Shown: positions 1,615 through 37,215 of the stretch, one piece after another
How the letters are laid out: each line of letters starts with the position of its first letter
How positions within the stretch are numbered: the stretch's first letter is position 1
Virus record (IMG/VR): IMGVR_UViG_2703718815_000012
Span: 1 to 46,929 of that record
DNA length: 46,929 nucleotides
Reading direction: 5' to 3' (one strand)
Source: a virus
Taxonomy: Duplodnaviria; Heunggongvirae; Uroviricota; Caudoviricetes
Notes under the pieces: model-generated
Seen by the model: the letters and a program-made list of their open reading frames with translations, nothing else
Told to the model about the DNA's origin: nothing
The model's database searches: none
Program-made: the position numbers and the translations under genes

Positions 1615-3753
1615 TCAAATCGCTGTGGTTGTGTATGTTACTTTAGTCCCTGAGGCGGTCCCTGACTTACCTATAGTTGCAAAAGCCTCGTCGCAGGTTG
1701 CTGTGGTATTCCCTGTTAGGTTGATATGAGTTGCTCCGTAACCTCCAGTGATGATGTTGGAAGATGTTTTAACTGTTGCGCTATTGTTTATCACCACTGC
1801 TAAATCCGTCCCTGAACTTAACAGAACTGAATCCCGCAGGACTAATCTCGCGCAATTGTCAAAGTACAACCCCCTGCCAGTTCCCTGAGATACATAGTAA
1901 TTATCAACCACTAGACCAGGGCAAATTGCGGCATATAGAGCGTAGTAGTCGGTAGTAAGCCCAACATACTCAGATGAAGATATACTGCATCTGTCACCAT
2001 AGTAAATAGAATACAAGCAACCGCTCCCTCTGGAGATGTTACCGACGAGCTTGACGGCTATAGAATATGTTGAGTCCACTTCATTTCTTGCAACTGATAT
2101 GCAGACTGGTGCCAGGCATGACTGGAATACATTGTCTGATATGGTCCCACTTTGGCACCCTGAAGCCCTGAGAATGCTTAGTGGATTCTCCTGTGATACA
2201 ACGCCACCAGATGCAGGGGCGGTTGTTCCTCCACATGTATGGAATATATTAGCGTTAAAACTAAACCCATTGGCACCGTTAACTATTACAGGTCTAATTA
2301 TCCCATTAAAAAAGTTTCCATCCAACTTCAGTGTTGTCTGTGTTTGTGAGTAAGGAAGAATGTAAATCCCGTAATACCAGTCGGTAGTATTTCCCCCATA
2401 AATGTTATTATTGACTATACTTAAGCGATCATACCCACCCTTCCAGCTAATTGGTATTCTGCACCTTATAAATGTATTGTTTGATATTTGCGTATTAATG
2501 GTAACATGACTTGTACTGTCATCAGCCAAAATCCCTGAATCACTATCTTCAATGTAATTATTAACTATTCGTATATTTCTGTTGCCAGTATTATGAATGG
2601 AAATCCCACAGTATGCCGAGTTCCTAACCGTGCATCCATCAATCAGGCAGTCATAACCGTATGACCATCCTGCTGTCCCTGCTGCGTCATAGGATATAGG
2701 CAAAATATTTCCTGCGGAATCGCTAGCTTCTGAAGCATTAGGATAACTTGCAACATCGATCTGAAAAGCAGCGCTGTTGGTTCCTTCTGACCAGCAGTTA
2801 ATTACTTTCCAATACTGGCACCCAGCCCCATCCCATAAATGCCAGTGGAGATATTTGCTTCCAACATTAAACAGGGTTATGTGCCTTGCCCTGTTAGCTC
2901 CAATTCCGTTTCCTCGACCAACAGGCCCGCTAACCACTAAATTCATGAAAATGACACGCTCAGTAAATGCGGCATATGATTGGAAGGTCGCAGGCTGAAG
3001 TGCAGAGCCGTTCGTAGTATTGCTATCGTGAAATAAACAGGCTCCCTGCCCATCAACAACCAAATTGCTTCCATATAGCGTGGTATAAGTAGTTCGATAC
3101 GTTTTCCCGGGTGAGAACACGATCTTGCCGCCACCAGCTGCAATGGCAGCCTGGAAGCATGCGTAAATTGCTGCAGTATCATCGGTCCCGTTACCCACAG
3201 TTCCGTTACTATCACCCTTAGCTCCACCAGCAAATTGCGGGTCATCAACACTAAAAACGCGTGAATGCACGGAAAGAATACTGTTGAGCTCCTGCTGAAC
3301 AGTCTTTCCATCAGAGTGTTTGATTAACGATGTGCCTGGCAATGATGAACTATAGAGTTGGCCGCGTAGTGTGGCATCACCTACCGACAGCCATGCACCA
3401 ACACCAATGCCGCCAGTTGAAGTTGGTGTAGAGCCAGGAGGTACCACCTTGCCACTCACAGGAAAAGCCCCACCCCAGCGATAATACTCGCCAGTTGCCT
3501 CAAGGCGAAGAACCTCATTAGGCAAGGTGAGGATCGCACCATCTTCGAAACTATCAATTGTGATGTAGCCGAAGGCGGCCATTGTCTGCTGGGCTAACCA
3601 ACGAAGACCTTCGATTGTATAGTGCTCACCACCAAAGCGGTCTGTGTATTTCAAACCTGATGAGGTTACGAACTCGTCAATTTTCCCGGCATTAAACTTC
3701 AGATCGCGCGGTGATTCGCTTGGTACAGGCTGGTTTGTAGGTTGCGTAGCCAT
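1615..3753 (-). CDS. tailspike / tail fibre with C-terminal right-handed beta-helix (pectate-lyase-like, probable polysaccharide depolymerase)
   Basis: 712-aa ORF at distal end of tail module; Gly/Asn/Ser/Thr-rich repetitive beta-strand sequence with repeated I/V-x-N-N turns. Confidence 0.65.
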   Translation of the reverse strand: MATQPTNQPVPSESPRDLKFNAGKIDEFVTSSGLKYTDRFGGEHYTIEGLRWLAQQTMAAFGYITIDSFEDGAILTLPNEVLRLEATGEYYRWGGAFPVSGKVVPPGSTPTSTGGIGVGAWLSVGDATLRGQLYSSSLPGTSLIKHSDGKTVQQELNSILSVHSRVFSVDDPQFAGGAKGDSNGTVGNGTDDTAAIYACFQAAIAAGGGKIVFSPGKTYRTTYTTLYGSNLVVDGQGACLFHDSNTTNGSALQPATFQSYAAFTERVIFMNLVVSGPVGRGNGIGANRARHITLFNVGSKYLHWHLWDGAGCQYWKVINCWSEGTNSAAFQIDVASYPNASEASDSAGNILPISYDAAGTAGWSYGYDCLIDGCTVRNSAYCGISIHNTGNRNIRIVNNYIEDSDSGILADDSTSHVTINTQISNNTFIRCRIPISWKGGYDRLSIVNNNIYGGNTTDWYYGIYILPYSQTQTTLKLDGNFFNGIIRPVIVNGANGFSFNANIFHTCGGTTAPASGGVVSQENPLSILRASGCQSGTISDNVFQSCLAPVCISVARNEVDSTYSIAVKLVGNISRGSGCLYSIYYGDRCSISSSEYVGLTTDYYALYAAICPGLVVDNYYVSQGTGRGLYFDNCARLVLRDSVLLSSGTDLAVVINNSATVKTSSNIITGGYGATHINLTGNTTATCDEAFATIGKSGTASGTKVTYTTTAI

Positions 3754-3764
3754 ATTGATTCCAT

Positions 3765-3790
3765 AAAAAAACCCGGCGCAGTGGCCGGGT
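3765..3790 (-). terminator. intrinsic terminator-like hairpin between tail-tip gene and tailspike gene
   Basis: minus strand reads cccggc-cactgc-gccggg followed by TTTTTTTAT, about 20 nt after the stop at 3812. Confidence 0.5.
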
Positions 3791-3811
3791 CAGGTTGGTC
3801 GGGGACGGTTC

Positions 3812-6289
3812 TTATTGGTAGATGGCGTCGCTGTACTCCGCGACCGTCAGTGAAACCGTATTATCTGTGTTCGGTTTGATGCTGTTGACCGTCCATAGCT
3901 GACTGTCCAGTTCCTCCACTGTCGCAATGAGATAGCGCGACGGGAGCTGCACAGTGTCTCCGTTCCATATATTGAGCTGAATGTCTGGTAGTGCCGCGGT
4001 GAAGCCGTACTTCGTGTCGCTGCGGGCCGTCGCCGGATAGCGCAGCGTCGGATTACCCAGGCTGTCGGTCACCAGCACGTACATTGAACCGGTAAACGCG
4101 ATCGGCTCGCTTGTATCGAAGTTATTCCCGGCGCGGCCGGTGATGTACCCCTGCTGCTGGTTGCTGTCGTAGATGTCAGGCATCTGAATGACGCTGCCAA
4201 CCTGGATAATGCCGTCTTCGAACACTTTGGCGTTCATCTTCACCCGGGAGTAGATGAGGCGCTTGGTTTCGCGTAATGCGCGCTCACGCGCCTGATACTC
4301 GTTACGGAAGCCGACTATCTCCAACTTATTGGGGTTCTCCGCTTCCTGTTCAACGATAGTGCCGTTCAGCACGCGGTAGTTGATGTACGTCTTATTGTTC
4401 GTGGTTGGGTGAACATAGGACACCTGCACACCGTCGTAGCCGCCAGGAAGAGTGGCCTCGTACGTCATTTTGTACTCGTCCGTCTTCATGTTGGCCCGGT
4501 TGAATACGGCCGCCGGGTAATCAACTTTCTGATCCCTGGTAAAGGTCAGCACGCCGTCATCCCAGTACGCCACCACTGACGCCGCATTGCAGATCGCCTG
4601 CACGCGGTCGCCCAGCGAGTCGTTCTCGTCATCAAACGTGTAGTCGAAATAACCCAGGCGCTCATCAGGCAGGCTTTCAGCAATCGAGTACAGCCCGTAC
4701 AGGTCAATGCTGCTGACCGGCTGCCCACCCATAATCAGCCAGGTGTGTGCTACTGCATCAGCGAACGAACGCGAAGGACGCAGCGTGTAATCCACCGTCT
4801 GCGTGTCCAGGTCGTATGTGATGGTATGACGCGTCACCAGGGCGTTGTATTTGCGGTCACGGCTTCCGAGGGCGTTCTCTGTCGCCCTTACCTTCACGCG
4901 CACCAGCGTATCGGTTGGATGCACTACGTTGGTTCTGACGTTGACCGAGTGGATCTCCTCAACCTTCAGGATAGAAGCATCACTTGAGTTATCTGTGCGC
5001 TGGAAGTTAATGGCGTACTTGCCGAAACCGCCGGTCGGCGTCAGCTTGTCAGTGCGATAAAACACTTCGCTGGATGATTTGTGCGGCGTCCCCTGGTGAT
5101 ACGTGAACGTCTGCTGAGTACCCGGCACCTGGTTGTAGTCATCGTCAATCTTCCAGATCGTGACCTTCCAGTCGGCTGACTTTTTGCCGCCCACTTGCAC
5201 CTGAGTGTGCAGCCACAACTGAGAAGACTCGACCGGCGAGAAGAACGGGCCTACCACGAGCGCTTCGTTATCGTTGAGGATGAATTTCGTCGTGTTGATT
5301 GTCGCCGTTGCCGGCACGTCAGGAGGGCCAATCAGATCCCCCATCGTGAATGTGTACCACCGGACCGGGTTAACAACCGCGCCGTCGTTAGTTTCGACAG
5401 CTGAAATCAGCGTACCGGAGAAATCGACATCCTGCGTGACATTTCCGGTTGGCGTGCTGTAGGTGACGTTAATCGTGAATGTAACCGCATGCGGAAGGAC
5501 GAGGCCCATGAAGTAATCAAACTCAGCCTGCTTGATGATTTTTACTGCAATCTGCCCGCCGGAGTAAGTTCCGCTCACAACCGTATTGGCGGTGGCTGTC
5601 TCGATCGGGAAATTGTCCGATTCGTTTTGGCCAGGCACTTCCTGCCCGTCGACGTCGTCGAACCCGTAGCCTTCGTTGATGGTGGGGATCACTTCGCCAG
5701 GCTGGTAAAACTGAAACTCTGCACCGGCCATGCTTCCGAGGCTGGACTCTGAATAACGCACAGATTCGTAATCGTATTTGCCGATCCCGATGCACATCCA
5801 TTCAGTAACGTATTTCAGGCCGCCATCCGTGTCGCTCTGGCGCACATATTCGAACAAAGATTCCTGAATCAGGTCCGGGAACGAGCGGATTTGCCCGTAA
5901 ATGTCCGGTTTTGCTTTATAGACGCGCGCAGTATTCGTCTGGCCGGTCAGGCTATTGTTTGGCGAGTCAATCGTGTTGCCGCCGGTATTAGCGATCGCCG
6001 GTTTGGGAGCAAGGAACGAGAAGACCGCGCCGACAACTTTGAAAATCGGGCTGAGAATGTCGCCAATGATACCCTTCGGCTGGTCGAATATCTGGATGGT
6101 GTCCAGTTCGCATAGCTCAAACGCCAGTTCATCATCTTCGCTCAGCTTTACGCCATTGCGGACGATCAGCAGGTCGCGGTGGAAAGTAGCGTCATTGGCC
6201 TCCAGCCAGTCATAAAAAAGGGTGCCGTTTGGCACCCTGTAGCGTTCTTTTGGCGTTCCCGGGAAACGCTGGAGTTCAATCAACGCCAT
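3812..6289 (-). CDS. tail tip / host-specificity protein (central fibre, gpJ analogue of T1/GTA-type tails)
   Basis: 825-aa ORF immediately downstream of the tail NlpC/P60 peptidase gene; assignment by size and synteny. Confidence 0.55.
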   Translation of the reverse strand: MALIELQRFPGTPKERYRVPNGTLFYDWLEANDATFHRDLLIVRNGVKLSEDDELAFELCELDTIQIFDQPKGIIGDILSPIFKVVGAVFSFLAPKPAIANTGGNTIDSPNNSLTGQTNTARVYKAKPDIYGQIRSFPDLIQESLFEYVRQSDTDGGLKYVTEWMCIGIGKYDYESVRYSESSLGSMAGAEFQFYQPGEVIPTINEGYGFDDVDGQEVPGQNESDNFPIETATANTVVSGTYSGGQIAVKIIKQAEFDYFMGLVLPHAVTFTINVTYSTPTGNVTQDVDFSGTLISAVETNDGAVVNPVRWYTFTMGDLIGPPDVPATATINTTKFILNDNEALVVGPFFSPVESSQLWLHTQVQVGGKKSADWKVTIWKIDDDYNQVPGTQQTFTYHQGTPHKSSSEVFYRTDKLTPTGGFGKYAINFQRTDNSSDASILKVEEIHSVNVRTNVVHPTDTLVRVKVRATENALGSRDRKYNALVTRHTITYDLDTQTVDYTLRPSRSFADAVAHTWLIMGGQPVSSIDLYGLYSIAESLPDERLGYFDYTFDDENDSLGDRVQAICNAASVVAYWDDGVLTFTRDQKVDYPAAVFNRANMKTDEYKMTYEATLPGGYDGVQVSYVHPTTNNKTYINYRVLNGTIVEQEAENPNKLEIVGFRNEYQARERALRETKRLIYSRVKMNAKVFEDGIIQVGSVIQMPDIYDSNQQQGYITGRAGNNFDTSEPIAFTGSMYVLVTDSLGNPTLRYPATARSDTKYGFTAALPDIQLNIWNGDTVQLPSRYLIATVEELDSQLWTVNSIKPNTDNTVSLTVAEYSDAIYQ

Positions 6290-6668
6290 AAGAAAAATAC
6301 TCCACTTTGGTGAATGCCCGCTGAATAACCAGCAACGAGTCCATGCGCACGCTTCCGTTCTCGCCGCGCGAGTGCAACGCCTGTCGGTTCAGCACCAGGC
6401 CAACGTGTGCCGGTTGCGCGCCGCGGTACCCGACGAATATCCCGCCTTCGATCGGTTTATCGACCTGGCGCCAGAAGACGACGTCACCCTGATAGCAGGT
6501 GAAGAAGTCCTCACCGGCTTCGTAGTCCGGTGTCTGGTGCAGCTCAATGCTGAGGACATGGCGGTAATACAGCACAACCAGCCCCCAGCAATCAGTCTTT
6601 TCGAATGAGCAGGCGCGGTTAGACCACGGCACGCCGATCACCTTGCGAACAAAATCAGAGGTATTCAT
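6276..6668 (-). CDS. tail-associated NlpC/P60-family (C40) cysteine peptidase
   Basis: 130-aa ORF with Cys (TDCWGLV) and His (AHVGLVL) spaced as in the NlpC/P60 fold; ATGA overlap with HNH gene stop. Confidence 0.5.
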   Translation of the reverse strand: MNTSDFVRKVIGVPWSNRACSFEKTDCWGLVVLYYRHVLSIELHQTPDYEAGEDFFTCYQGDVVFWRQVDKPIEGGIFVGYRGAQPAHVGLVLNRQALHSRGENGSVRMDSLLVIQRAFTKVEYFSYGVD

Positions 6669-7129
6669 GTGCCGTGCCTGCCAGTTACATCGCCGCTTCT
6701 CACTTCAGCAATAATTCTCGCCTCACAAGCTGAAGGGAAGTCAGGAAACCAACCAAGATGAGCATTTGCCAATCTTGCGCGCCACTCATTCCTTCTCTTC
6801 AAGAAATCCACGCCAGTAACACCTGATGTATTACCAGTTAGTTTTCTTTTATTCCTTGAGTTGACAGCTCTGCTAACCGCCCTGAGGTTATCTATGTTGT
6901 TATTTTTTTTATCACCATCAATATGATCAATTTCATGACCGTTAGGTATTTCACCATGGTGCATCTCATAAATAATCCTATGAACAAGCAATTGCTTTCC
7001 ATCAACGATTACAGAGAGATATCCTTGTGTAGTAGTCTTGTTTGGTGACCTTCCGTATCTGACACCACTCCTTCTTATATTCCAATATATCTTTCCATCA
7101 TCATATCTGAAAAGTTCATGCCAATTCAT
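6665..7129 (-). CDS. HNH homing endonuclease (NUMOD4-like N-terminus plus HNH_3 motif)
   Basis: HEIDHIDGDKKNNNIDNLR HNH motif, N-terminal DGKIYWNIRRSGV segment; AT-rich gene with AT-rich upstream spacer, sitting between two tail genes. Confidence 0.75.
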   Translation of the reverse strand: MNWHELFRYDDGKIYWNIRRSGVRYGRSPNKTTTQGYLSVIVDGKQLLVHRIIYEMHHGEIPNGHEIDHIDGDKKNNNIDNLRAVSRAVNSRNKRKLTGNTSGVTGVDFLKRRNEWRARLANAHLGWFPDFPSACEARIIAEVRSGDVTGRHGT

Positions 7130-7205
7130 ATAGAGACCTCAACCAGAAGATACAAATATATTTAATAAGAGCAAGAGAAGTAGCGCGCCTAATAATTATA
7201 CCACT

Positions 7206-7676
7206 TCATAAATATTGAAGCCCAGTATATTCGCGGGGGTCGTATAATTTCCCAATATTATTATTGAGTGGATTTGTAACAGAAAGGGTTACCGACGCTG
7301 AGTCTGCGTCGATGTCCACCGTCTTGACGTATAACTGCCACGACTTAATCGGCACCGACACATCGCCGCTGTCGAAGATCTGCCGGGTGGCCGTGATGGC
7401 CGTCAGACGGGCTGCACCCTTCCACTGTTTCATCAGCGCTTTGATATCCGACGACAGCCGCCCTAACTTCACCGTCGCGTCAATCACCGGCGTGCCGCTC
7501 TGCTGACTCTCTTCTATTTCAAAGCGCGCTGGCGTGTATGTCTGGCCGCCAAGTGTCTTCGGGAAGAACTGCTTATCGACCAGGCGGACGTAACCAAAGG
7601 ATGGGTGGTAGAACGTGATGGTGTCGTACAGCCCGCGCGTCGGGCGCTGCTGCTTATAAACTCTGAAGGTAGGCAT
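7206..7676 (-). CDS. tail protein (tail-tip complex component)
   Basis: 156-aa ORF in tail module; start overlaps upstream stop (TAATG). Confidence 0.45.
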   Translation of the reverse strand: MPTFRVYKQQRPTRGLYDTITFYHPSFGYVRLVDKQFFPKTLGGQTYTPARFEIEESQQSGTPVIDATVKLGRLSSDIKALMKQWKGAARLTAITATRQIFDSGDVSVPIKSWQLYVKTVDIDADSASVTLSVTNPLNNNIGKLYDPREYTGLQYL

Positions 7677-8173
7677 TACGGCACTCTCGGTAAAGATTCC
7701 GGGTCGCGCCCGTCAGGATAACCAGTAACAACGATATCTAGCCACGAATCCCACGGCGGCGGAAGTTCAACAATGATGTCGTCAAACTCGTCGTCAGCGT
7801 TGTAGAGGTGGTTTGCGATAACAGTTCCCGTCCAGGTCACCACCCCGCCGTCGATACTGGTTTGCACCGGCATCTGCGTGAAGTGAAGTTCCTGCAACTG
7901 CAGGCCACTGCCGCCAAGGTTGATATTCATCCGGAACCAGTTAAGGCCGCGGTTGAGATAGTTAGGGCTGCGCAGCCACTGCTGAAAAGCGCGCTCCTGG
8001 TCAAGAGTGAAGATCCACGTCAGGGACCATGTCACTTTCAGGTCGTCAGTAAGGCTCTGGAAGATAGCCGGGCCGACCGCTGGCTGATCGGTCTGGAACC
8101 CGGTATCGAGCGTCATGTTTTTGCTGGCCTTCTGCGCCAGCGGCAGCCAGTCGGGATAGTCGATAATTGGCAT
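7676..8173 (-). CDS. tail protein (distal tail / tail-tip complex component)
   Basis: 165-aa ORF following tape measure and small tail protein genes. Confidence 0.45.
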   Translation of the reverse strand: MPIIDYPDWLPLAQKASKNMTLDTGFQTDQPAVGPAIFQSLTDDLKVTWSLTWIFTLDQERAFQQWLRSPNYLNRGLNWFRMNINLGGSGLQLQELHFTQMPVQTSIDGGVVTWTGTVIANHLYNADDEFDDIIVELPPPWDSWLDIVVTGYPDGRDPESLPRVP

Positions 8174-8210: not shown

Positions 8211-8441
8211 TTAATCTATGGCAGTTGGTCGTCTCGGAGCTTCAAAAATTTTAATGTTAAATTCTTGAATAGAGCCGTTACTCTTAAACTCAAGTGTCTC
8301 ACCTGCAGGAATAACACCGGCAATGTAAGTGCCATCTGTTAGCAAAAACTCAAAATTAACAGCCCGGTTAGCTGAGTATTTGACAACCTTCCCGCTTTCA
8401 AGTGGCATGCTTTTTGACTCGCCCGGCAAAATACTATCCAT
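8211..8441 (-). CDS. small tail protein
   Basis: ORF directly after tape measure gene; ATG at 8441 with GAGGG SD preferred over the TTG at 8453 used by the ORF track. Confidence 0.4.
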   Translation of the reverse strand: MDSILPGESKSMPLESGKVVKYSANRAVNFEFLLTDGTYIAGVIPAGETLEFKSNGSIQEFNIKIFEAPRRPTAID

Positions 8442-8449
8442 GTTCCCTC

Positions 8450-11400
8450 TCAATTTTGACCACGTGGAGTTCTTTTGGCATTGAAATTACTTGTTATGCC
8501 CTGAGAAATTGGACCACCATTATTTAGATCAGCAATGATGGCATCCACGGTTATTGTACCATCTCCACTACTCGTAGCCTGAGCATCAAATGTGGCTCCC
8601 GTCATATTCTGAACGTTGATTATGACGTTCACACCTCCGCCAGCATTCATCTCCTTATTGCTGATAACCTTGCCATTGTCGCCCGGTATCATGTACTGCT
8701 TACCGGTACTGGCCTGGTAAATCTCAGGTTTCCCTCGCTCACCGACCTGATAAAGACCTCCTGCATTCACCGGGCCGCCATTGTAACGCATACCGGTTAA
8801 AGCAAGGCCCTGTGCCAGGCCTATCGTTGAAGCAATTCCTGTCATGGCAGGAACTGAGTTACCACCAAAAGAAGCAAGGCTAGCAAAGGCTGCTGCCGGA
8901 GCCCATGCTTTAGCCAGAAATACAGCCTCCGTCGCACTGGCAGCAGTAGCCGCTGCGCCCAATGTCTGCCCTATAATGAAGTTTTTGAGGGCCTCAACAC
9001 CAACCTGGACTAGCGCATTGACCACGCTGTTCAGCATCGTATTCCCGAGTGAACGCATAGCATCCTGCGCTGACATCGTTCCGGTGATCAGCCCGGTTAA
9101 CGCATTGGATGCATTACCTGAAAACGCATCCACCGCGCTTGTCAGCATTTCATAACCAAGACCTTTCTGACTGAGCAATTGCCACTGAGCGGCTGTCATC
9201 TGCTCATTGAACTGGTTTTCCTGCGCAGTCTTTAAGGCAAGGTACTGGGCATCGGTAGCTGCCTTTGCAGCAACGAACTGATCGTAATTTATTTTCCCTT
9301 TTTGGTAACTTTGCTGGAGTATCGCCTGTTCCTGCTGCTGATATTGCTGCAGCAGGGCTAACTTCTGGTTATTTTCATTCACCAGTTGCTGTACCGGGTC
9401 AACTTCTGCTCGGGCAGAAGCTACCGGATTGACTGCGGCCTGGGCGTTAATCTTGGCGAGGTTATTCTGGTGCTCGAGCGCCATTTTCTCCGTGGCAGCG
9501 TTATACTCCTTGAGATCTATTTTCCCAGCGTTCAGTGCGGCCTTCAGATTTTGCATGGATTCGGCGTAGGATTTATTCTCCGCCTGCAAAGGCATTGCCT
9601 TAAGTGCTTCCGTAACCCCTTTGGCTGCCGCTGATGCATCCCATGCTTTTGCTGCATATTCACCGGCCTTTTTAATTTGCTCCTGGGTTGCAGAATTACC
9701 CAGTGACTGCTGAGCACGTAATATGGCCTGCTCTCTGCTTAGCTCCTCCGTTGAATCAGCTGCCAATTCTGACTGCTGCTTCAGATTCGCCAGCTTCTGA
9801 GCAACAGATTCAGCAGAAGACGCTGATTTCTTCCCCTGCCGCTCACTCTCTTGTTGAGATTTTTTTCTGGCTTCTTCTGACTTCTCTAAATCATAATTTT
9901 CAGCAGCCAGCCTGCCAGCTGCAGAGATTTGATTCTGATTGTCAGTGACCTTGGCAGCCTGCATCCTGGCTTTGGCTATCGCCCGCTCTCTCTCGTCCTG
10001 AATTTTAAGTAATTCATTCTGCTCTTCCAGAGTAGCGATAACTTTATCGCCCTCCTTGGTCGCGGGAGATATCTGCAGCGCTTTGTGGTCGAAGCTTTTT
10101 CCGGCCTGATTGGCTCGGTTTATTTCATCAGCCGTCTCCCCAAAGGCTTTCGCTACCGCACCCTGAACTTGCTCAAGAGACCAGGATTTTTCGATGAGTT
10201 GATCATGAACGCCCATCGCCGTAAGCATGTTGTTCGTGAGTGTGCGAGTCGCCTCAGACGCGGTTTCTTCTGTCCGGGATAATTTATCCTTTGCGGCCTC
10301 AAGATCTCGCGTCTTGCGAGCCAGTTCATCAGACACCTCCGCCTGTTGACGGGCGAAATCCGCACCTTGCCCCATAGATTCAGCAACTTCCTGCGCTGCC
10401 GGGGTAAAGTTCTGATATCTGTCTCTCAGCGAGTCAACTTCACTCTGCAGATCTGCTACATCCTCTTTCTGAGCTCGAATAGAATTATTGGCATCTGCAA
10501 TAGCCCCACGCAGCTGCGTGTTCGACATTGCATTCATGGCGGCGTTGAGCTTATCCAGACCATCGGCGAAGGCGATAGCCTCCTCTTTTGCCTGTTGAGC
10601 TTTCTGCCAGAAATAGAAGATCGCTCCGGCAGCAAGCATAGCCGCACCAGCTGGACCCCCTATAAGAGCAAGTGCACCACGGGCCATTCCGATACCAATT
10701 GACGCTGCACGAGCAGCGGTCGCTGCGCGGGCAGATGCTGCAGCCTGGGCAGTTTCAGCCTCGGCAAGAGCAAGAGATGCGGTAGTAGCACGAGTTTTTG
10801 CGGCCACAAGAGCATCCATTGCCAGCATCTCTGCAGCGCTACCTTTTGCCACGTTATATTCAGCCTGGGCCAGCGCGAGAGACGAAAGAGCAGCCTCTTT
10901 ATCAGCCAGAGCCTTACGCTGAGCAGAATTAGCAGCAACCAAAGCTGCTTGTGCCGCCTGACTCTCTGCAACAGCCTGCTGACGGGATGCTGCGATATCA
11001 GCGATTTTCGCTGAGGTAGCCATGGTCAGCGCACCGACATACCGCGCACCCATTACGCCGGCAACAATCGTGAGCGTAGTGCTGAGAACGTCCAGGTTTT
11101 CACTGAGAGAAATGACTGAATCACTGAATATTTTGACGCCAGTTTTTACAGTGGCATTCTCGCCAAAGAACTTCGTGATGTTGTTGTTGGCAATTTCAAG
11201 AGACTGGCTGATCGTGGCAGTAGTTTTAGCGAACTCCTGTCCAATTTTATCGCCCTGAGAAAGCAACCCATTCACGATCACATCAGTGGTTAACTTGCCC
11301 TCTGCAGCCATGTTTCTGAGCGCCCCAATGCTGACATTCATCGAGTCAGCAAGAGCAATCATGAGCCGGTTACCCTGCTCGTTCACAGAGTTAAATTCAT

Positions 11401-11965
11401 CACCTCTTAAAGCTCCGGACGCCAGCCCCTGAGCAAGCTGAATGATTGCGTTGCTTGCCTCCTCGGCTGTTGACCCTGAGACCACGAAGCCCTGGTTAAT
11501 AATGGTTGTCAACCTGGTAATGTCCTCAACACTGACACCATAACTCCGTGTTGATCGCTCGAGACGTGCATAGAGAGTGGCCGTGGCATCGAGACCTGAA
11601 CGAGTCTTTTGAGAGATGTCAAAAACACGCTCTGTGACATCAGCCAGGGTCTCAAAAGGCGGTACGGAATCCCTGACGGCGTTTGCCAGTTTATTACTCA
11701 GGTCCTGCCATGCCTGGGCGTATGCGCCGACCTGCTGGACAGAAAGAGCGGCAATGAGCGCTTTCGCGACGCCAGTTAAGCTGGACATAGTGCCTTCAAT
11801 CGAAGACAGGGATCGTTCAGTGCGGTTTAACCCCGCCTCAAGACGACCCATGCTACCGTTAAGACCATTTAACGCGGCATCGATATCCCGGCGTCCCTGA
11901 AGGATCCCGGCGGTGTCCATGTCAACTTCATAAACAATCGTTCCAGCGCTGACAGTACCAGCCAT
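8450..11965 (-). CDS. tail tape measure protein
   Basis: 1171-aa Ala/Gln/Glu-rich largely helical ORF in the canonical position between chaperone and tail-tip genes. Confidence 0.85.
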   Translation of the reverse strand: MAGTVSAGTIVYEVDMDTAGILQGRRDIDAALNGLNGSMGRLEAGLNRTERSLSSIEGTMSSLTGVAKALIAALSVQQVGAYAQAWQDLSNKLANAVRDSVPPFETLADVTERVFDISQKTRSGLDATATLYARLERSTRSYGVSVEDITRLTTIINQGFVVSGSTAEEASNAIIQLAQGLASGALRGDEFNSVNEQGNRLMIALADSMNVSIGALRNMAAEGKLTTDVIVNGLLSQGDKIGQEFAKTTATISQSLEIANNNITKFFGENATVKTGVKIFSDSVISLSENLDVLSTTLTIVAGVMGARYVGALTMATSAKIADIAASRQQAVAESQAAQAALVAANSAQRKALADKEAALSSLALAQAEYNVAKGSAAEMLAMDALVAAKTRATTASLALAEAETAQAAASARAATAARAASIGIGMARGALALIGGPAGAAMLAAGAIFYFWQKAQQAKEEAIAFADGLDKLNAAMNAMSNTQLRGAIADANNSIRAQKEDVADLQSEVDSLRDRYQNFTPAAQEVAESMGQGADFARQQAEVSDELARKTRDLEAAKDKLSRTEETASEATRTLTNNMLTAMGVHDQLIEKSWSLEQVQGAVAKAFGETADEINRANQAGKSFDHKALQISPATKEGDKVIATLEEQNELLKIQDERERAIAKARMQAAKVTDNQNQISAAGRLAAENYDLEKSEEARKKSQQESERQGKKSASSAESVAQKLANLKQQSELAADSTEELSREQAILRAQQSLGNSATQEQIKKAGEYAAKAWDASAAAKGVTEALKAMPLQAENKSYAESMQNLKAALNAGKIDLKEYNAATEKMALEHQNNLAKINAQAAVNPVASARAEVDPVQQLVNENNQKLALLQQYQQQEQAILQQSYQKGKINYDQFVAAKAATDAQYLALKTAQENQFNEQMTAAQWQLLSQKGLGYEMLTSAVDAFSGNASNALTGLITGTMSAQDAMRSLGNTMLNSVVNALVQVGVEALKNFIIGQTLGAAATAASATEAVFLAKAWAPAAAFASLASFGGNSVPAMTGIASTIGLAQGLALTGMRYNGGPVNAGGLYQVGERGKPEIYQASTGKQYMIPGDNGKVISNKEMNAGGGVNVIINVQNMTGATFDAQATSSGDGTITVDAIIADLNNGGPISQGITSNFNAKRTPRGQN

Positions 11966-11981
11966 AATCTAATCTCCGGGC

Positions 11982-12013
11982 AATAAAAAACCCCGCCGTA
12001 GAGGGGTTGTTTT
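11982..12013 (-). terminator. terminator-like hairpin upstream of tape measure gene
   Basis: minus strand cccctctacggcgggg followed by TTTTTTATT, between the stop at 12027 and the start at 11965. Confidence 0.4.
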
Positions 12014-12026
12014 GGTGTGTTCTTTT

Positions 12027-12704
12027 TTACTTGGCCCGTTCCGCCAGGGCTAATCGCTTCGCTTTCTTCGCCATGTAATCATCGGCGATCGCATCGTACT
12101 CATCGCGAGTGAAGCCTTTCTGCTCTGGGTATTTTGCCGACAGAAGCATCTGAAATTCGGTCATCGTTAATTGAGAGGCTTCTTCGCGGATCATGCCAAA
12201 ATGAGTACGCGCCGCGCTGATGTAGTCGAAGGCTTTAAATTCGTTTGTTCTCGCACCTGTTTCGTGGCGCTGCAGCTGGCGGACCTTAGCTTTGCCGACG
12301 ACACCATGCTGCATAAGGTGCTGCGCCAGCACGATGATGTCGTTCTTCGGCATCTGTCCCGGTCGGTATACGACGCAATGCCGCCATCCCTTCCATTCGC
12401 CGATCATAGGCGTCAGGTCTTCCTCGCAGCACGCCTGAAGCACCAACATGCACGTTGATAAAAGCTTCTCAGCAGCGCGGTTGAATGATGGAGATAGCCA
12501 TTCAGGAAATCCTCCCAGCGTGCCAGCGCAAACCTCAATTAGCTGAGCGACATCATTGCCGTGTATGGTGGCGTACGCCTGCACAATCTCTTCCGGAGTG
12601 CCGATCCTCGTCATAGCCTCGAATGAAGGCCGTAGCAGGTAATCTTTCCCGCCTTCGCGGCTGTCGCTGATGGAGAGTTCGCCAATATCGGTTAAAGCGG
12701 TCAT
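12027..12704 (-). CDS. putative tail assembly chaperone
   Basis: 225-aa ORF in the position of G/GT-type chaperones immediately upstream of tape measure; synteny only. Confidence 0.35.
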   Translation of the reverse strand: MTALTDIGELSISDSREGGKDYLLRPSFEAMTRIGTPEEIVQAYATIHGNDVAQLIEVCAGTLGGFPEWLSPSFNRAAEKLLSTCMLVLQACCEEDLTPMIGEWKGWRHCVVYRPGQMPKNDIIVLAQHLMQHGVVGKAKVRQLQRHETGARTNEFKAFDYISAARTHFGMIREEASQLTMTEFQMLLSAKYPEQKGFTRDEYDAIADDYMAKKAKRLALAERAK

Positions 12705-34574: not shown

Positions 34575-34802
34575 TTAAGCGGCATGGTTCTCTGGGTGTG
34601 GAAACAGGTCGGGAAGATCAGGTCGAATTTCGTGTGCCTTAATCTCGCCACCAGTAGCGTTTACGATGGCTGTTACTTTTTCCGGAGATACGGAACCACC
34701 GTTAAGCCACTTGTGAACCGCTGGCTGGCTAACGCCGCAAATATCTGCGAGTCGCTTCTGGCTGCCAACGATTTCTAAAGCTCGTTGAATAACTTTGTTC
34801 AT
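34575..34802 (-). CDS. Cro/YdaS-like HTH transcriptional regulator
   Basis: 75-aa HTH protein (QKRLADICGVSQPAVHKWLNG) divergent from cI across the operator region. Confidence 0.75.
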   Translation of the reverse strand: MNKVIQRALEIVGSQKRLADICGVSQPAVHKWLNGGSVSPEKVTAIVNATGGEIKAHEIRPDLPDLFPHPENHAA

Positions 34803-34838
34803 GGATTTTACCTATCCGATTACTGGATTAATGAAAAG

Positions 34839-34901
34839 ATAACCCAAGTTATGACCATTGTCCATAACCTTTGTTATTTTACTCTGCATAACCTGAGTTA
34901 T
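34839..34901. promoter_or_regulatory. OR operator region: three 14-bp operators ATAACC-N3-GTTAT
   Basis: ATAACCCAAGTTAT (34839..34852), ATAACCTTTGTTAT (34864..34877), ATAACCTGAGTTAT (34888..34901); last operator ends 11 nt before the cI ATG. Confidence 0.7.
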
Positions 34902-34912
34902 ATATTGGCGCT

Positions 34913-35617
34913 ATGAAAACATTCGCAGATCGACTCAACGCGGCTATGAGAGCCGCAGGCATATCCCAAGGGCAGCTGGCTGAGAAAGTCGGCATATCTC
35001 AACCTGCAATTCAGAAAATGACATCAGGCAAAACCACAGGCAGCCGTAAGATGGTTGAGCTTGCTCATGCATTGAACGTGCGTCCGGAATGGCTCAGTTC
35101 GGGCATAGGCTCAATGCAGGACGAAGGACGCAAGGACTCCGCTATCCCACCAGAATCGGAATGGGGTAAAGTTGACGCTTGGGATAGCAAAACAGATCTG
35201 CCAGATGACGAGGTCGAAGTGCCATATCTGAAAGATATAGAACTTGCGTGTGGTGATGGTTCCTGCTTGGAAGATGACTATAACGGATTCAAACTTCGTT
35301 TTGCGAAGTCTACCCTTCGTAAGGTGGGAGCCCAGAAAGATAGCGTGCTGTGCTTCCCGGCATCAGGAAATAGCATGGAGCCCATGATCCCGGAAGGGAC
35401 GACGGTCGCCATCAACACGAACGACAAAAAGATCGTTGATGGCAAGGTTTATGCAATAAGCCAGGACGGATGGAAAAGGCTAAAATCCATTTATCGTGTG
35501 AGTCCTACCCGCATCGTGATTCGCAGCTTCAACAGTGAAGAGTACCCAGATGAAGAAGCGGATATCGAGAGCGTAGAGATTATTGGTCGCATGTTCTGGA
35601 CATCTACTATCTGGTAA
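34913..35617 (+). CDS. cI: CI-type repressor (HTH plus LexA-like S24 peptidase domain)
   Basis: N-terminal HTH (ISQGQLAEKVGISQPAIQKM), C-terminal S24 autocleavage domain with Ser in GNSMEP and Lys in WKRLK. Confidence 0.85.
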   Translation: MKTFADRLNAAMRAAGISQGQLAEKVGISQPAIQKMTSGKTTGSRKMVELAHALNVRPEWLSSGIGSMQDEGRKDSAIPPESEWGKVDAWDSKTDLPDDEVEVPYLKDIELACGDGSCLEDDYNGFKLRFAKSTLRKVGAQKDSVLCFPASGNSMEPMIPEGTTVAINTNDKKIVDGKVYAISQDGWKRLKSIYRVSPTRIVIRSFNSEEYPDEEADIESVEIIGRMFWTSTIW

Positions 35618-35631
35618 TCAAGAGGGAAGGG

Positions 35632-36321
35632 ATGAAATTAGAACTAATAGCATTATCTTTACTGGCTTTAACTACGAACGCAATCGGCTCTAGCACCCTG
35701 AGCTGCGATTACGCTAAGTCGGACATCAGTAATGGAGCTAATGCTCCAATGATTCCTGGCGGAAAAGGCACTGTCGAATTTGATGGAAAATCCTTTAAAG
35801 CCACACGTCCAAATGGTGGTGTGATCATTTCACCAATAATCAGTGAACAAAAAAATGGAATGCTTTTTCTTGACGACAAGACAAAAGTGTTCGCGGCAAG
35901 CCTTTCTAAAACTGATTTCGCTATCTCTGACCGAATTGCTCGAATTACTGAGCAATGGGCCAACTGCATTGATGTTAGTCCATCGCCGAACAATTCAGAT
36001 AACGACAAACCGGCAACTGCCTGGAAATATAGGTCTCTCACGAAGCAGGAGATAAATGCTGTTGAGGCAGCAGTGAAAGACCAATTGAAGGATCCAGAAA
36101 GTGCCAGATTCAAGCACTCTAAGTTTGTGAGCAACGGGAAAGGCGCTTACTGCGGCCTGGTTAATTCCAAAAACTCATATGGCGGCTATGCTGGAAACAC
36201 TCCTTTCATGGTCATGCTTATCAACAATGGCAAACCTCACGCTGGCTTTATTGGTATGGGCGGAGATGATGCCGAGACCCTGTCAACGCTATCCGTCTGC
36301 AAAGACAGTGGTTATTTCTAA
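35632..36321 (+). CDS. secreted protein of unknown function (immunity-region moron)
   Basis: 229-aa ORF with N-terminal signal peptide MKLELIALSLLALTTNAIG; AT-rich; co-oriented with and immediately downstream of cI. Confidence 0.55.
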   Translation: MKLELIALSLLALTTNAIGSSTLSCDYAKSDISNGANAPMIPGGKGTVEFDGKSFKATRPNGGVIISPIISEQKNGMLFLDDKTKVFAASLSKTDFAISDRIARITEQWANCIDVSPSPNNSDNDKPATAWKYRSLTKQEINAVEAAVKDQLKDPESARFKHSKFVSNGKGAYCGLVNSKNSYGGYAGNTPFMVMLINNGKPHAGFIGMGGDDAETLSTLSVCKDSGYF

Positions 36322-36337
36322 ACCCCACCTTGATTGA

Positions 36338-36364
36338 AAGCCCCGCATTGCGGGGTTTTTTATT
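36338..36364 (+). terminator. intrinsic terminator ending the cI operon
   Basis: ccccgc-att-gcgggg followed by TTTTTTATT. Confidence 0.7.
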
Positions 36365-36426
36365 GCCAGAAATCCCCCCCCGCCACATTTTTTACAAAAA
36401 TAAATTCATTTAGCTATCAGTGCATT

Positions 36427-36489
36427 ATAACTTATGTGATGATAATTATAAATTAGGTTATTGCCATCACTCATAACTAAGGTTATCTT
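36427..36489 (+). promoter_or_regulatory. OL-like operators and PL-like promoter
   Basis: three 14-mers related to the OR sites (ATAACTTATGTGAT 36427..36440, ATAAATTAGGTTAT 36448..36461, ATAACTAAGGTTAT 36473..36486) overlapping -35 TTGCCA (36461..36466) and -10 TATCTT (36484..36489), 17-nt spacer. Confidence 0.55.
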
Positions 36490-36684
36490 TAATCCATCGA
36501 AACGAAACATCGACAGCTGAGCGAAGTTAGCCAGCGGCGAAGTGGAGATTCGGTCAGTCGAACGGCGCGACAGTAAACCATGCGTCGGACCATAGGCGGG
36601 CTCAGGAAGAGCGGCAATTATGGCTAAACGATTTACCAGCAGCTCTTTGCGAGGGGCTGACGGTAAACAATCAGAGGGGTGTAT

Positions 36685-37026
36685 ATGTCAGATAAAAAAA
36701 TGGCGCCACTACTGCTCAATGTAGACGCCAGCGAAGTGCTTACCCAGACCGGGGAGCTTTTAAAGTTACTTGAACTTCCAGCCAGCTCCTTTCAGGGAAT
36801 TCCTGAGCATGTCGTCGATCTGTTTTTTGACCGTGTCCGTGGCCTGATTGACAACATCGTCCTTAGTGATTTCGCGACCACAGTCAGCACAACTGACGCC
36901 GGTGAAATTTGTCTCAAAGTCAAAATCATCGGGCTGGTTGAACATCTCACTTCCGCAGTCAGGGCACACGGTCCGCATGGTTTGCATGAACATATCCTTT
37001 CTACTGTTGGGGAGCTTAAAGAGTAA
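36685..37026 (+). CDS. hypothetical protein, first ORF of early-left operon (uncertain; overlaps antisense ORF)
   Basis: 113-aa ORF from ATG 36685 with GAGGGG SD; N-position gene by synteny but acidic rather than Arg-rich. Confidence 0.3.
   Translation: MSDKKMAPLLLNVDASEVLTQTGELLKLLELPASSFQGIPEHVVDLFFDRVRGLIDNIVLSDFATTVSTTDAGEICLKVKIIGLVEHLTSAVRAHGPHGLHEHILSTVGELKE
36766..36987 (-). CDS. hypothetical zinc-ribbon protein (73 aa; uncertain, antisense to 36685..37026)
   Basis: CPDCG and CADCG pairs, AAAGGA SD 7 nt before ATG 36987; hand-counted third-position GC higher than in the overlapping plus frame. Confidence 0.35.
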   Translation of the reverse strand: MQTMRTVCPDCGSEMFNQPDDFDFETNFTGVSCADCGREITKDDVVNQATDTVKKQIDDMLRNSLKGAGWKFK

Positions 37027-37215
37027 GCGATTTCTTGCTGTTGGGGAATAGCGGGAAAGCGCGCGCCGGGCGCGGATAAATACCCCGGCAATAACTGGAA
37101 TGTTTTGTAGTGCAGTGAATTGCAGCTGCATCGACGGCAACCGGAAGATAAGCACCCGGCGCTGCACCACAAAGCATTTCTCCCGCATCAGCGGGTAACG
37201 ACAGAGGGTAAGAGC

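Follow-up and report, generated by a model that had tools for sequence, protein, structure and literature searches.

A predicted exported protein with exchangeable C-terminal domains encoded between cI and PL of a lambdoid prophage: a moron and candidate exclusion factor

The window analyzed here is a tailed-phage (Caudoviricetes) sequence of 46,929 nucleotides (nt), positions 1 to 46,929 of IMG/VR record IMGVR_UViG_2703718815_000012. Directly downstream from its cI-type repressor gene lies an open reading frame (ORF) for a protein of 229 amino acids (aa), here called ORF229. Judged by its sequence features, ORF229 together with its terminator is a classical moron cassette in the cI–PL slot of an HK639-like, put-RNA-type lambdoid prophage. 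ORF229 belongs to an uncharacterized family with no relationship to known exclusion systems, but as an element it is of a familiar kind. Our tentative proposal, to which we give rather less than an even chance, is that ORF229 encodes a lysogen-expressed periplasmic protein that blocks phage entry.

Prophage genes that are expressed under repression shape which phages and other mobile elements enter a bacterium, and exclusion proteins that target injection are few and poorly understood. The ORF229 family offers a compact test case, because its members are small, are predicted to be exported, and combine a constant carrier domain with C-terminal domains that nature has already swapped; they occupy two well-defined, putatively lysogen-expressed slots in prophages of Enterobacter, Klebsiella, Citrobacter, Cronobacter, and Escherichia coli.

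Results

ORF229 lies in the predicted repressor operon

The initial annotation put a 229-aa protein in the position that rexAB occupies in phage lambda. An ORF of this length is indeed present inside the OR–OL interval, with cI before it and a terminator after it that precedes OL/PL (Table 1). The upstream gene is well identified as a repressor, with matches to HTH_3 (1.4e-10) and Peptidase_S24 (4.9e-17) in Pfam and to phrog_4, “transcriptional repressor” (2.7e-55). The operator motif ATAACN4GTTAT, allowing at most one mismatch, occurs eight times in the window against 0.7 expected. Only 14 nt separate the cI stop from the ORF229 start, and a scan of the + strand from 34906 to 36336 found no promoter-like or terminator-like sites. 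Given the short gap and the site-free strand, we infer that in the lysogen a transcript from PRM covers both cI and ORF229. In the PRM-like promoter, the end of the -10 hexamer is so close to the cI start codon (34878-34913) that a leaderless or near-leaderless cI mRNA would be implied, as for lambda PRM.

The strong terminator expected before OL/PL is also there, with a folding energy of -17.3 kcal/mol (z = -3.8). It was missed by a consensus pattern scanner because the stem, extended by G-U pairs, consumed the T-tract. Beyond it, positions 36391-37100 are 96% identical to phage HK639 and include the HK639 “putL-like antiterminator RNA”; no Rfam model matches the put RNA region. From this similarity, the phage appears to use put-RNA antitermination (HK022/HK639 type) and not an N protein.

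The description of the gene as AT-rich needs qualification. Its GC content (44.5%; 43.5% at third codon positions) is below that of cI (49.5% and 51.5%, respectively) and of the window (52.3%), but the difference is modest. An antisense ORF at 35709-36134 was taken as a by-product of the ORF229 coding frame.

A predicted exported two-domain protein with conserved cysteine pairs

The N-terminus reads MKLELIALSLLALTTNAIG, followed by SS at the predicted cleavage site, and comprises a basic start, a hydrophobic core (Kyte-Doolittle maximum for a 10-residue stretch, 2.56), and small side chains at -3 and -1. This layout recurs in all 35 aligned relatives, with cleavage about five residues ahead of an invariant Cys, so that the clear signal peptide claimed initially holds up in a heuristic scan and across the family. 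The same scan found a lipobox at that Cys in none of the 35. We considered whether ORF229 might itself be a lipoprotein; a PROSITE-style pattern fits TLSC loosely, and we rejected this reading because of the conserved AxA-type cleavage site five residues upstream of the Cys and the charged residues often found in the would-be lipobox.

Cys25 and Cys112 are invariant in the family alignment, and Cys174 and Cys223 are near-invariant, not only here but also across the far larger family of C-terminal domains (C-domains) described below. Because there are two conserved Cys pairs in addition to the signal peptide, the sequence features point to a disulfide-bonded, soluble periplasmic protein.

AlphaFold2 models the N-terminal domain (N-domain) confidently as all-beta (predicted local distance difference test [pLDDT] scores of about 85-93), with disorder over residues 118-129 of the linker that follows. 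Modeled alone from 38 sequences, the C-domain consists of a helix, a four-stranded sheet, and a helix (pLDDT 82.7; predicted template modeling score 0.77), an arrangement that may be cystatin/NTF2-like. The two parts also match separate PHROGs: residues 17-117 match phrog_2578 (9.4e-30) and phrog_14768 (2.8e-28), and residues 126-201 match phrog_2320 (5.3e-21) and several smaller PHROGs. Every PHROG that matches ORF229 is labeled “unknown function.”

Purifying selection within domains and exchange of C-domains

A database search returned 91 homologues of ORF229, none of them named. The full-length ones (226-233 aa) come from Enterobacter, Citrobacter, Klebsiella/Raoultella, Leclercia, and Cronobacter, and the N-domain family was seen only in prophages, all in Enterobacterales. 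An identical cI–ORF229 pair occurs in one of 5,426 complete E. coli genomes (ET729), in which the ORF is annotated “hypothetical protein.” The cI gene of the ET729 prophage is 100% identical to that of the window, compared with 99.1% for an Enterobacter mori prophage (L008) and 94.4% for a Citrobacter freundii prophage (L025). Between the window and L025, the ratio of nonsynonymous to synonymous substitution rates (dN/dS) is 0.071 for the N-domain, 0.026 for the C-domain, and 0.033 for cI, with dS of 0.5-1.7. ORF229 is thus a real gene under purifying selection, and these ratios rule out a spurious ORF.

Among relatives that keep the N-domain, some have C-termini without homology to that of ORF229 (type A), and such C-termini are of at least three kinds. 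Types B and C both give matches to phrog_13318 and phrog_3917 as well as to the C-terminal half of phrog_2578; another relative (P0044, 342 aa) carries a phrog_11231 module as its C-terminus. Protein P0013 shares 94% identity with the N-terminal half of ORF229 (49% of the query) but has a type B C-domain. In L008, cro (100%) and cI (99.1%) are nearly those of the window, yet the N-domain downstream is 57% identical and the C-domain is unrelated. Nucleotide identity between the two is 83-90% over the last 250 nt of cI and 57-75% over the N-domain, and is random past the linker. ORF229 thus diversifies through recombination at the linker, and single-residue positive selection is apparently not the driver.

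The same comparison reveals a mosaic breakpoint inside cI, at about 35350. Before it, cro and the first two-thirds of cI are ~97-100% identical; after it, where the C-terminal S24 domain is encoded, identity drops to 83-90%. Recombination joints are therefore not confined to gene boundaries.

The C-domain belongs to a very large family, with 3,153 cluster representatives (clustering at 50% identity) at E <= 1e-3. It is usually seen as a small lipoprotein encoded by prophages and plasmids. The best matches mostly align only to residues of about 126-229 and are proteins of 110-150 aa. Many of these have a lipobox without Asp at +2, and because of this lack of Asp they are probably anchored in the outer membrane.

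Two genomic slots

Members of the N-domain family whose context was examined were found in two positions. One, directly downstream from the same cI allele, is seen in the window, ET729, L008, and L025/L026. The other, directly upstream of the tape-measure gene, is seen in siphophage prophages, among them those of Klebsiella and Cronobacter (L002-L007, L009-L014, and L027). Copies in the tape-measure slot often follow immI-like Arc/antirepressor morons. They have a promoter-like site (e.g., TTGATA-16-TAGGAT with an extended TG in L006), most of them (not L006 or L007) share the ribosome-binding site (RBS) TGGGGATAGGGATATG, and they are followed by an intrinsic terminator ending ...GGGGTTTTTTATTGCC directly ahead of the tape-measure start codon. 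The terminator after ORF229 shares a GCGGGGTTTTTTATTGCC tail with those that follow family members in this slot.

Stand-alone C-domain genes show similar preferences. Three lie upstream of a tape-measure gene: gp20 of Salmonella phage ES18, an unannotated ORF of Klebsiella phage 5 LV-2017, and P0089. ES18 gp20 is annotated “possible moron; function unknown” and is flanked by annotated terminators. Two others lie downstream from a repressor gene: that for P0062 belongs to a Mu-like phage and that for P0087 to a phage with a reverse transcriptase and a bAvd gene. One more (P0067) adjoins an integrase gene. Plasmids carry C-domain genes as well: one from Klebsiella that has phage-type genes, and a small one from Acinetobacter. 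As a side observation, L041 has at 8289-10036 a reverse transcriptase gene beside a bAvd gene, an arrangement like that of diversity-generating retroelements, and the same phage has a C-domain lipoprotein gene directly after its repressor gene.

The window has the same tail module as the relatives (Phage_tail_terminator_3, Big_2, DUF6246, and TMP_3); its distal tail proteins are encoded at 3812-8173, and the tape-measure proteins of the window and L006 share 47% identity. However, the junction between the DUF6246 and tape-measure genes is empty of any moron, and the slot terminator alone remains. A GGCGGGGTTTTTTATTGCC tail is common to this terminator-like hairpin (11985-12006), the terminator after ORF229, and the slot terminators of the relatives. 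This shared tail suggests that the cassette may have moved between the two slots along with its terminator.

The cI–PL slot of HK639 contains three unrelated genes. A search of genome contigs with cI recovered 10 distant relatives (37-68% identity), none of which carries ORF229; they have unrelated cargo or nothing downstream from cI. Two of these (L030 and L031; cI 66-68% identical) have, respectively, a 383-aa gene at 3724-4875 in the slot and, 14 nt after cI, a gene for an unrelated 98-aa signal-peptide protein at 3707-4003. In two Klebsiella prophages, the moron region upstream of the tape-measure gene has a gene for a VasI-like secreted protein (PF11319, associated with the type VI secretion system [T6SS]; L013 2995-3498, L014 961-1464), separated from the ORF229 family member by one unannotated ORF. 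Genes for exported proteins thus seem to accumulate in this slot.

Taken in the sense of Juhala and Hendrix (PMC3594210), a moron is recognized by its presence or absence among relatives, deviant base composition, a terminator and promoter of its own, and expression from the repressed prophage. Presence is polymorphic: HK639 has other genes in the slot, L008 and L025 have variants, and the tape-measure slot is empty in the window and filled in relatives. The base composition deviates modestly, as given above, and ORF229 is closed by its own terminator (36336-36364), with homologous terminators behind family members elsewhere. The scan found no promoter-like site between the cI start and ORF229, which, from this arrangement, appears to borrow PRM. 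Activity in the repressed prophage would follow from the 14-nt junction with cI.

No match to a characterized family

Neither ORF229 nor its variants with other C-domains gave a significant match to Pfam, NCBIfam, or PADLOC. Profile searches of Protein Data Bank sequences gave chance matches only, and a BFVD search returned only uncharacterized phage proteins and “lipoproteins.” Homology to a housekeeping periplasmic protein, named in advance as the result that would speak against an exclusion or host-interaction role, was found in none of the family and profile searches. Relatives of the C-domain were also scanned individually against families (38, then 130; 168 proteins in total). The C-domain itself was matched by no family in any of the 168. 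One relative gave a VasI match (member and region not located). Another, P0082 (149 aa), is a fusion of an EexN-type entry-exclusion lipoprotein module (residues 7-62) to the C-domain; the module matches NF033894 with E 3.6e-14 and 52.4 bits (cutoff 33). ORF229 does not match this model even at E <= 10. On sequence grounds, the P0082 fusion is a weak lead toward exclusion.

Literature searches found no mention of the ORF229 family and nothing relevant on DUF6246. Published work on Fc02 exclusion genes and on Tai systems proved unrelated.

Discussion

A possible block to phage entry at the envelope

Of the functions considered, superinfection exclusion at the envelope is the best supported, because export is combined with lysogen-expressed slots in unrelated phages, an exchangeable C-terminal module, and one tail type. 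The gene would be expressed with cI from PRM in the lysogen and its product released into the periplasm, where it would block entry of a superinfecting phage. It might do so by binding the tail-tip/tape-measure complex as this crosses the periplasm or, as with Llp and Cor, by covering the periplasmic side of some envelope component needed for injection. The exchangeable C-domain would then be the specificity module.

Several known systems share parts of this scheme. In a lambda lysogen, rexA and rexB are cotranscribed with cI, which lies upstream of them, and a terminator closes the unit ahead of OL/PL. The genomic slot and logic are the same, but Rex brings about abortive infection with two proteins, of the cytoplasm and inner membrane, whereas ORF229 is a single gene for an exported soluble protein, without Rex homology in that no Pfam, PHROG, or PADLOC match links it to RexA or RexB. 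P1 Sim is reportedly made as a signal-peptide precursor that is processed, is periplasmic, and acts after adsorption. SimC (264 aa) is similar in size to ORF229; however, BLASTP found no similarity between them (best E = 1.2), and the sim operon adjoins c4, a different context.

A resident phage can also block entry with a small, exported envelope protein that contains disulfides, as T5 does with Llp, phi80 and N15 with Cor, and TP-J34 with Ltp. Ltp is encoded in the lysogeny module, and Llp and Cor beside the gene for the receptor-binding protein; Ltp is said to target the tape-measure protein. Most stand-alone C-domain homologues are, like these, lipoproteins, whereas ORF229 has neither a lipobox nor sequence similarity to them, and the family searches gave no match to Llp or Cor. 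Ltp is a surface lipoprotein that mediates exclusion (PMC3952083).

A direct precedent for the alternative slot is HK97 gp15, an exclusion moron located between the tail chaperone and tape-measure genes and expressed from the prophage, which blocks genome entry in a manner that depends on tail-region features of the incoming phage (PMC3594210). Relatives of ORF229 occupy this same slot, with a promoter-like site and terminator of their own. However, gp15 is a small YebO-like inner-membrane protein, and ORF229 is predicted to be a periplasmic two-domain protein of 210 residues when mature, with no sequence similarity to gp15. The true homologues are PHROGs 2578, 14768, and 2320, all without a known function, and ES18 gp20 (151 aa). 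The C-domain of gp20 matches phrog_2320 (3.2e-35), and its gene shares the slot RBS and terminator; it lacks the N-domain and lies in the tail operon.

A number of observations weigh against entry blocking. ORF229 has no sequence or fold similarity to characterized exclusion proteins, as judged by exclusion-annotated PHROGs, PADLOC, and P1 SimC. The EexN fusion was found once among the 168 scanned proteins and in none of the 130 other C-domain representatives. Among the known phage exclusion proteins of Gram-negative hosts, membrane proteins and outer-membrane lipoproteins predominate, and soluble periplasmic examples are, to our knowledge, rare. Pairwise dN/dS indicates strong purifying selection, without an arms-race signature apart from the domain swapping. 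The C-domain is also found on non-phage plasmids, and a family of more than 3,000 clusters could serve some general function in the envelope. Finally, C-domain type does not obviously track tape-measure type, as type A occurs with both TMP_2 and TMP_3.

A broader version of the proposal goes further, and we think it unlikely, if worth stating: the family would be an unrecognized, widespread class of periplasmic or outer-membrane-anchored entry blockers. Its cystatin-like “DPESARF...NSYGGY” effector/specificity domain, delivered either in lipoprotein form or joined to a soluble beta-barrel carrier, would be kept in two lysogen-expressed slots as an interceptor of the tape-measure/tail-tip complex, or of its envelope partner, during injection.

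Alternative functions

Instead of blocking phages, ORF229 may be a lysogenic-conversion factor of the envelope that is unrelated to exclusion. It could be an inhibitor of, or immunity protein against, toxins or enzymes that act in the periplasm (colicin M-type bacteriocins, T6SS effectors, lysozymes, or proteases), or a stress or colonization factor. This is the main rival, though we regard it as doubtful. Polymorphic, swappable C-domains are typical of immunity repertoires, and the cystatin-like and PliC-like folds, with the polymorphic C-termini, hint weakly in this direction. A moron with a T6SS-associated (VasI-like) product is only one ORF away in L013 and L014, the C-domain occurs on small non-phage plasmids and phage-plasmids, and the lambda morons bor and lom provide a precedent (PMC3594210). 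However, of the genes called in the retrieved flanks, none was noted as a cognate toxin gene, and the recurrent placement before tape-measure genes and after repressor genes in unrelated phages fits phage-versus-phage precedents better.

The position directly upstream of the tape-measure gene, in the tail operon of at least 12 related loci, might also be taken to mean that ORF229 serves the lytic cycle or virion (as a tail-assembly, injection accessory, lysis, or envelope-remodeling factor), its expression from the cI operon being incidental. This is improbable. Tail assembly is cytoplasmic, whereas the protein has a signal peptide and conserved Cys pairs. The relatives have their own terminator and promoter-like site inside the tail operon, and the tape-measure slot is empty in the window despite the same tail module. 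In the repressor operon, moreover, the gene should be active in the lysogen and silent during lytic growth, and neither presence/absence nor C-domain swapping tracks tail type. Given export, the terminator, and the presence/absence polymorphism, we set aside a role in tail assembly specifically.

Most improbable of all is a general mobile-element exclusion factor acting on conjugative, type IV secretion system-mediated DNA entry and not on phage entry: the EexN module fused to the C-domain in P0082 and the homologues on plasmids would fit, but the fusion is a single case, ORF229 does not match the EexN model, the similarity to VirB8 is generic to the NTF2 fold, and the N-domain family was found only in prophages.

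If ORF229 does block entry, a function would be in hand for a very large uncharacterized domain family, along with natural specificity variants for dissecting how siphophage tails pass across the periplasm. If it does not, the gene is still a well-delimited candidate for lysogenic conversion in clinically relevant Enterobacterales.

Features of the window

Table 1. Coordinates of ORF229, its parts, and the surrounding or related features in the window
Feature	Position	Strand	Basis or description
ORF229	35632..36321	+	229 aa; ATG is the first start codon past the upstream stop
Shine-Dalgarno-like AAGAGGGAAGGG	directly 5' of ORF229	+	sequence
Predicted signal peptide, aa 1-19	35632..35688	+	predicted signal peptidase I cleavage AIG/SS; heuristic scan and family alignment
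N-domain, aa 20-114	35689..35973	+	all-beta, barrel-like; invariant Cys25/Cys112; motif FA(V/I)SDRI..TTEQW..C
Low-complexity linker, aa 115-133; recombination joint for C-domain exchange	35974..36030	+	pLDDT <50; identity to L008 collapses
C-domain, aa 134-229 and stop codon	36031..36321	+	motif LKDPESARF...YCGLVNSKNSYGGYAG..PF; near-invariant Cys174/Cys223
cI-type repressor gene, 234 aa	34913..35617	+	HTH_3 and Peptidase_S24; Pfam, PHROG
cro-like repressor gene, 75 aa, divergent from cI	34575..34802	-	Pfam YdaS_toxin/HTH_3/P22_Cro; phrog_35 5.7e-26
OR, three ATAACN4GTTAT operators (34839, 34864, 34888) between cro and cI	34839..34901	.	motif scan
OL, three ATAACN4GTTAT operators (36427, 36448, 36473) 3' of ORF229, overlapping PL	36427..36489	+	motif scan
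PR-like promoter, overlapped by OR operators	34864..34836	-	promoter scan
PRM-like promoter, overlapped by OR operators	34878-34906	+	promoter scan; -10 ends 7 nt 5' of the cI ATG
Intrinsic terminator closing the cI–ORF229 operon	36336-36364	+	hairpin GAAAGCCCCGC-AUU-GCGGGGUUUUU and U-tract
PL, TTGCCA-17-TATCTT	36461-36489	+	promoter scan; coincides with annotated “putative pL” of HK639
putL-like antiterminator RNA	36563..36688	+	96% identity to HK639 annotation
Tape-measure gene	8450-11965		context of the alternative moron slot
Terminator-like hairpin and T-tract between the DUF6246 and tape-measure genes	11985..12006	-	context of the alternative moron slot
DUF6246 gene	12027-12704		context of the alternative moron slot

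Elsewhere in the prophage, a gene for a membrane acyltransferase (Acyl_transf_3; 525-1523, - strand) adjoins the tailspike gene (Tail_spike_N and beta-helix; 1615-3753, - strand). From its domain and position, it is probably an O-antigen acetylase conversion moron; if so, this prophage would have a second surface function that is expressed in the lysogen.

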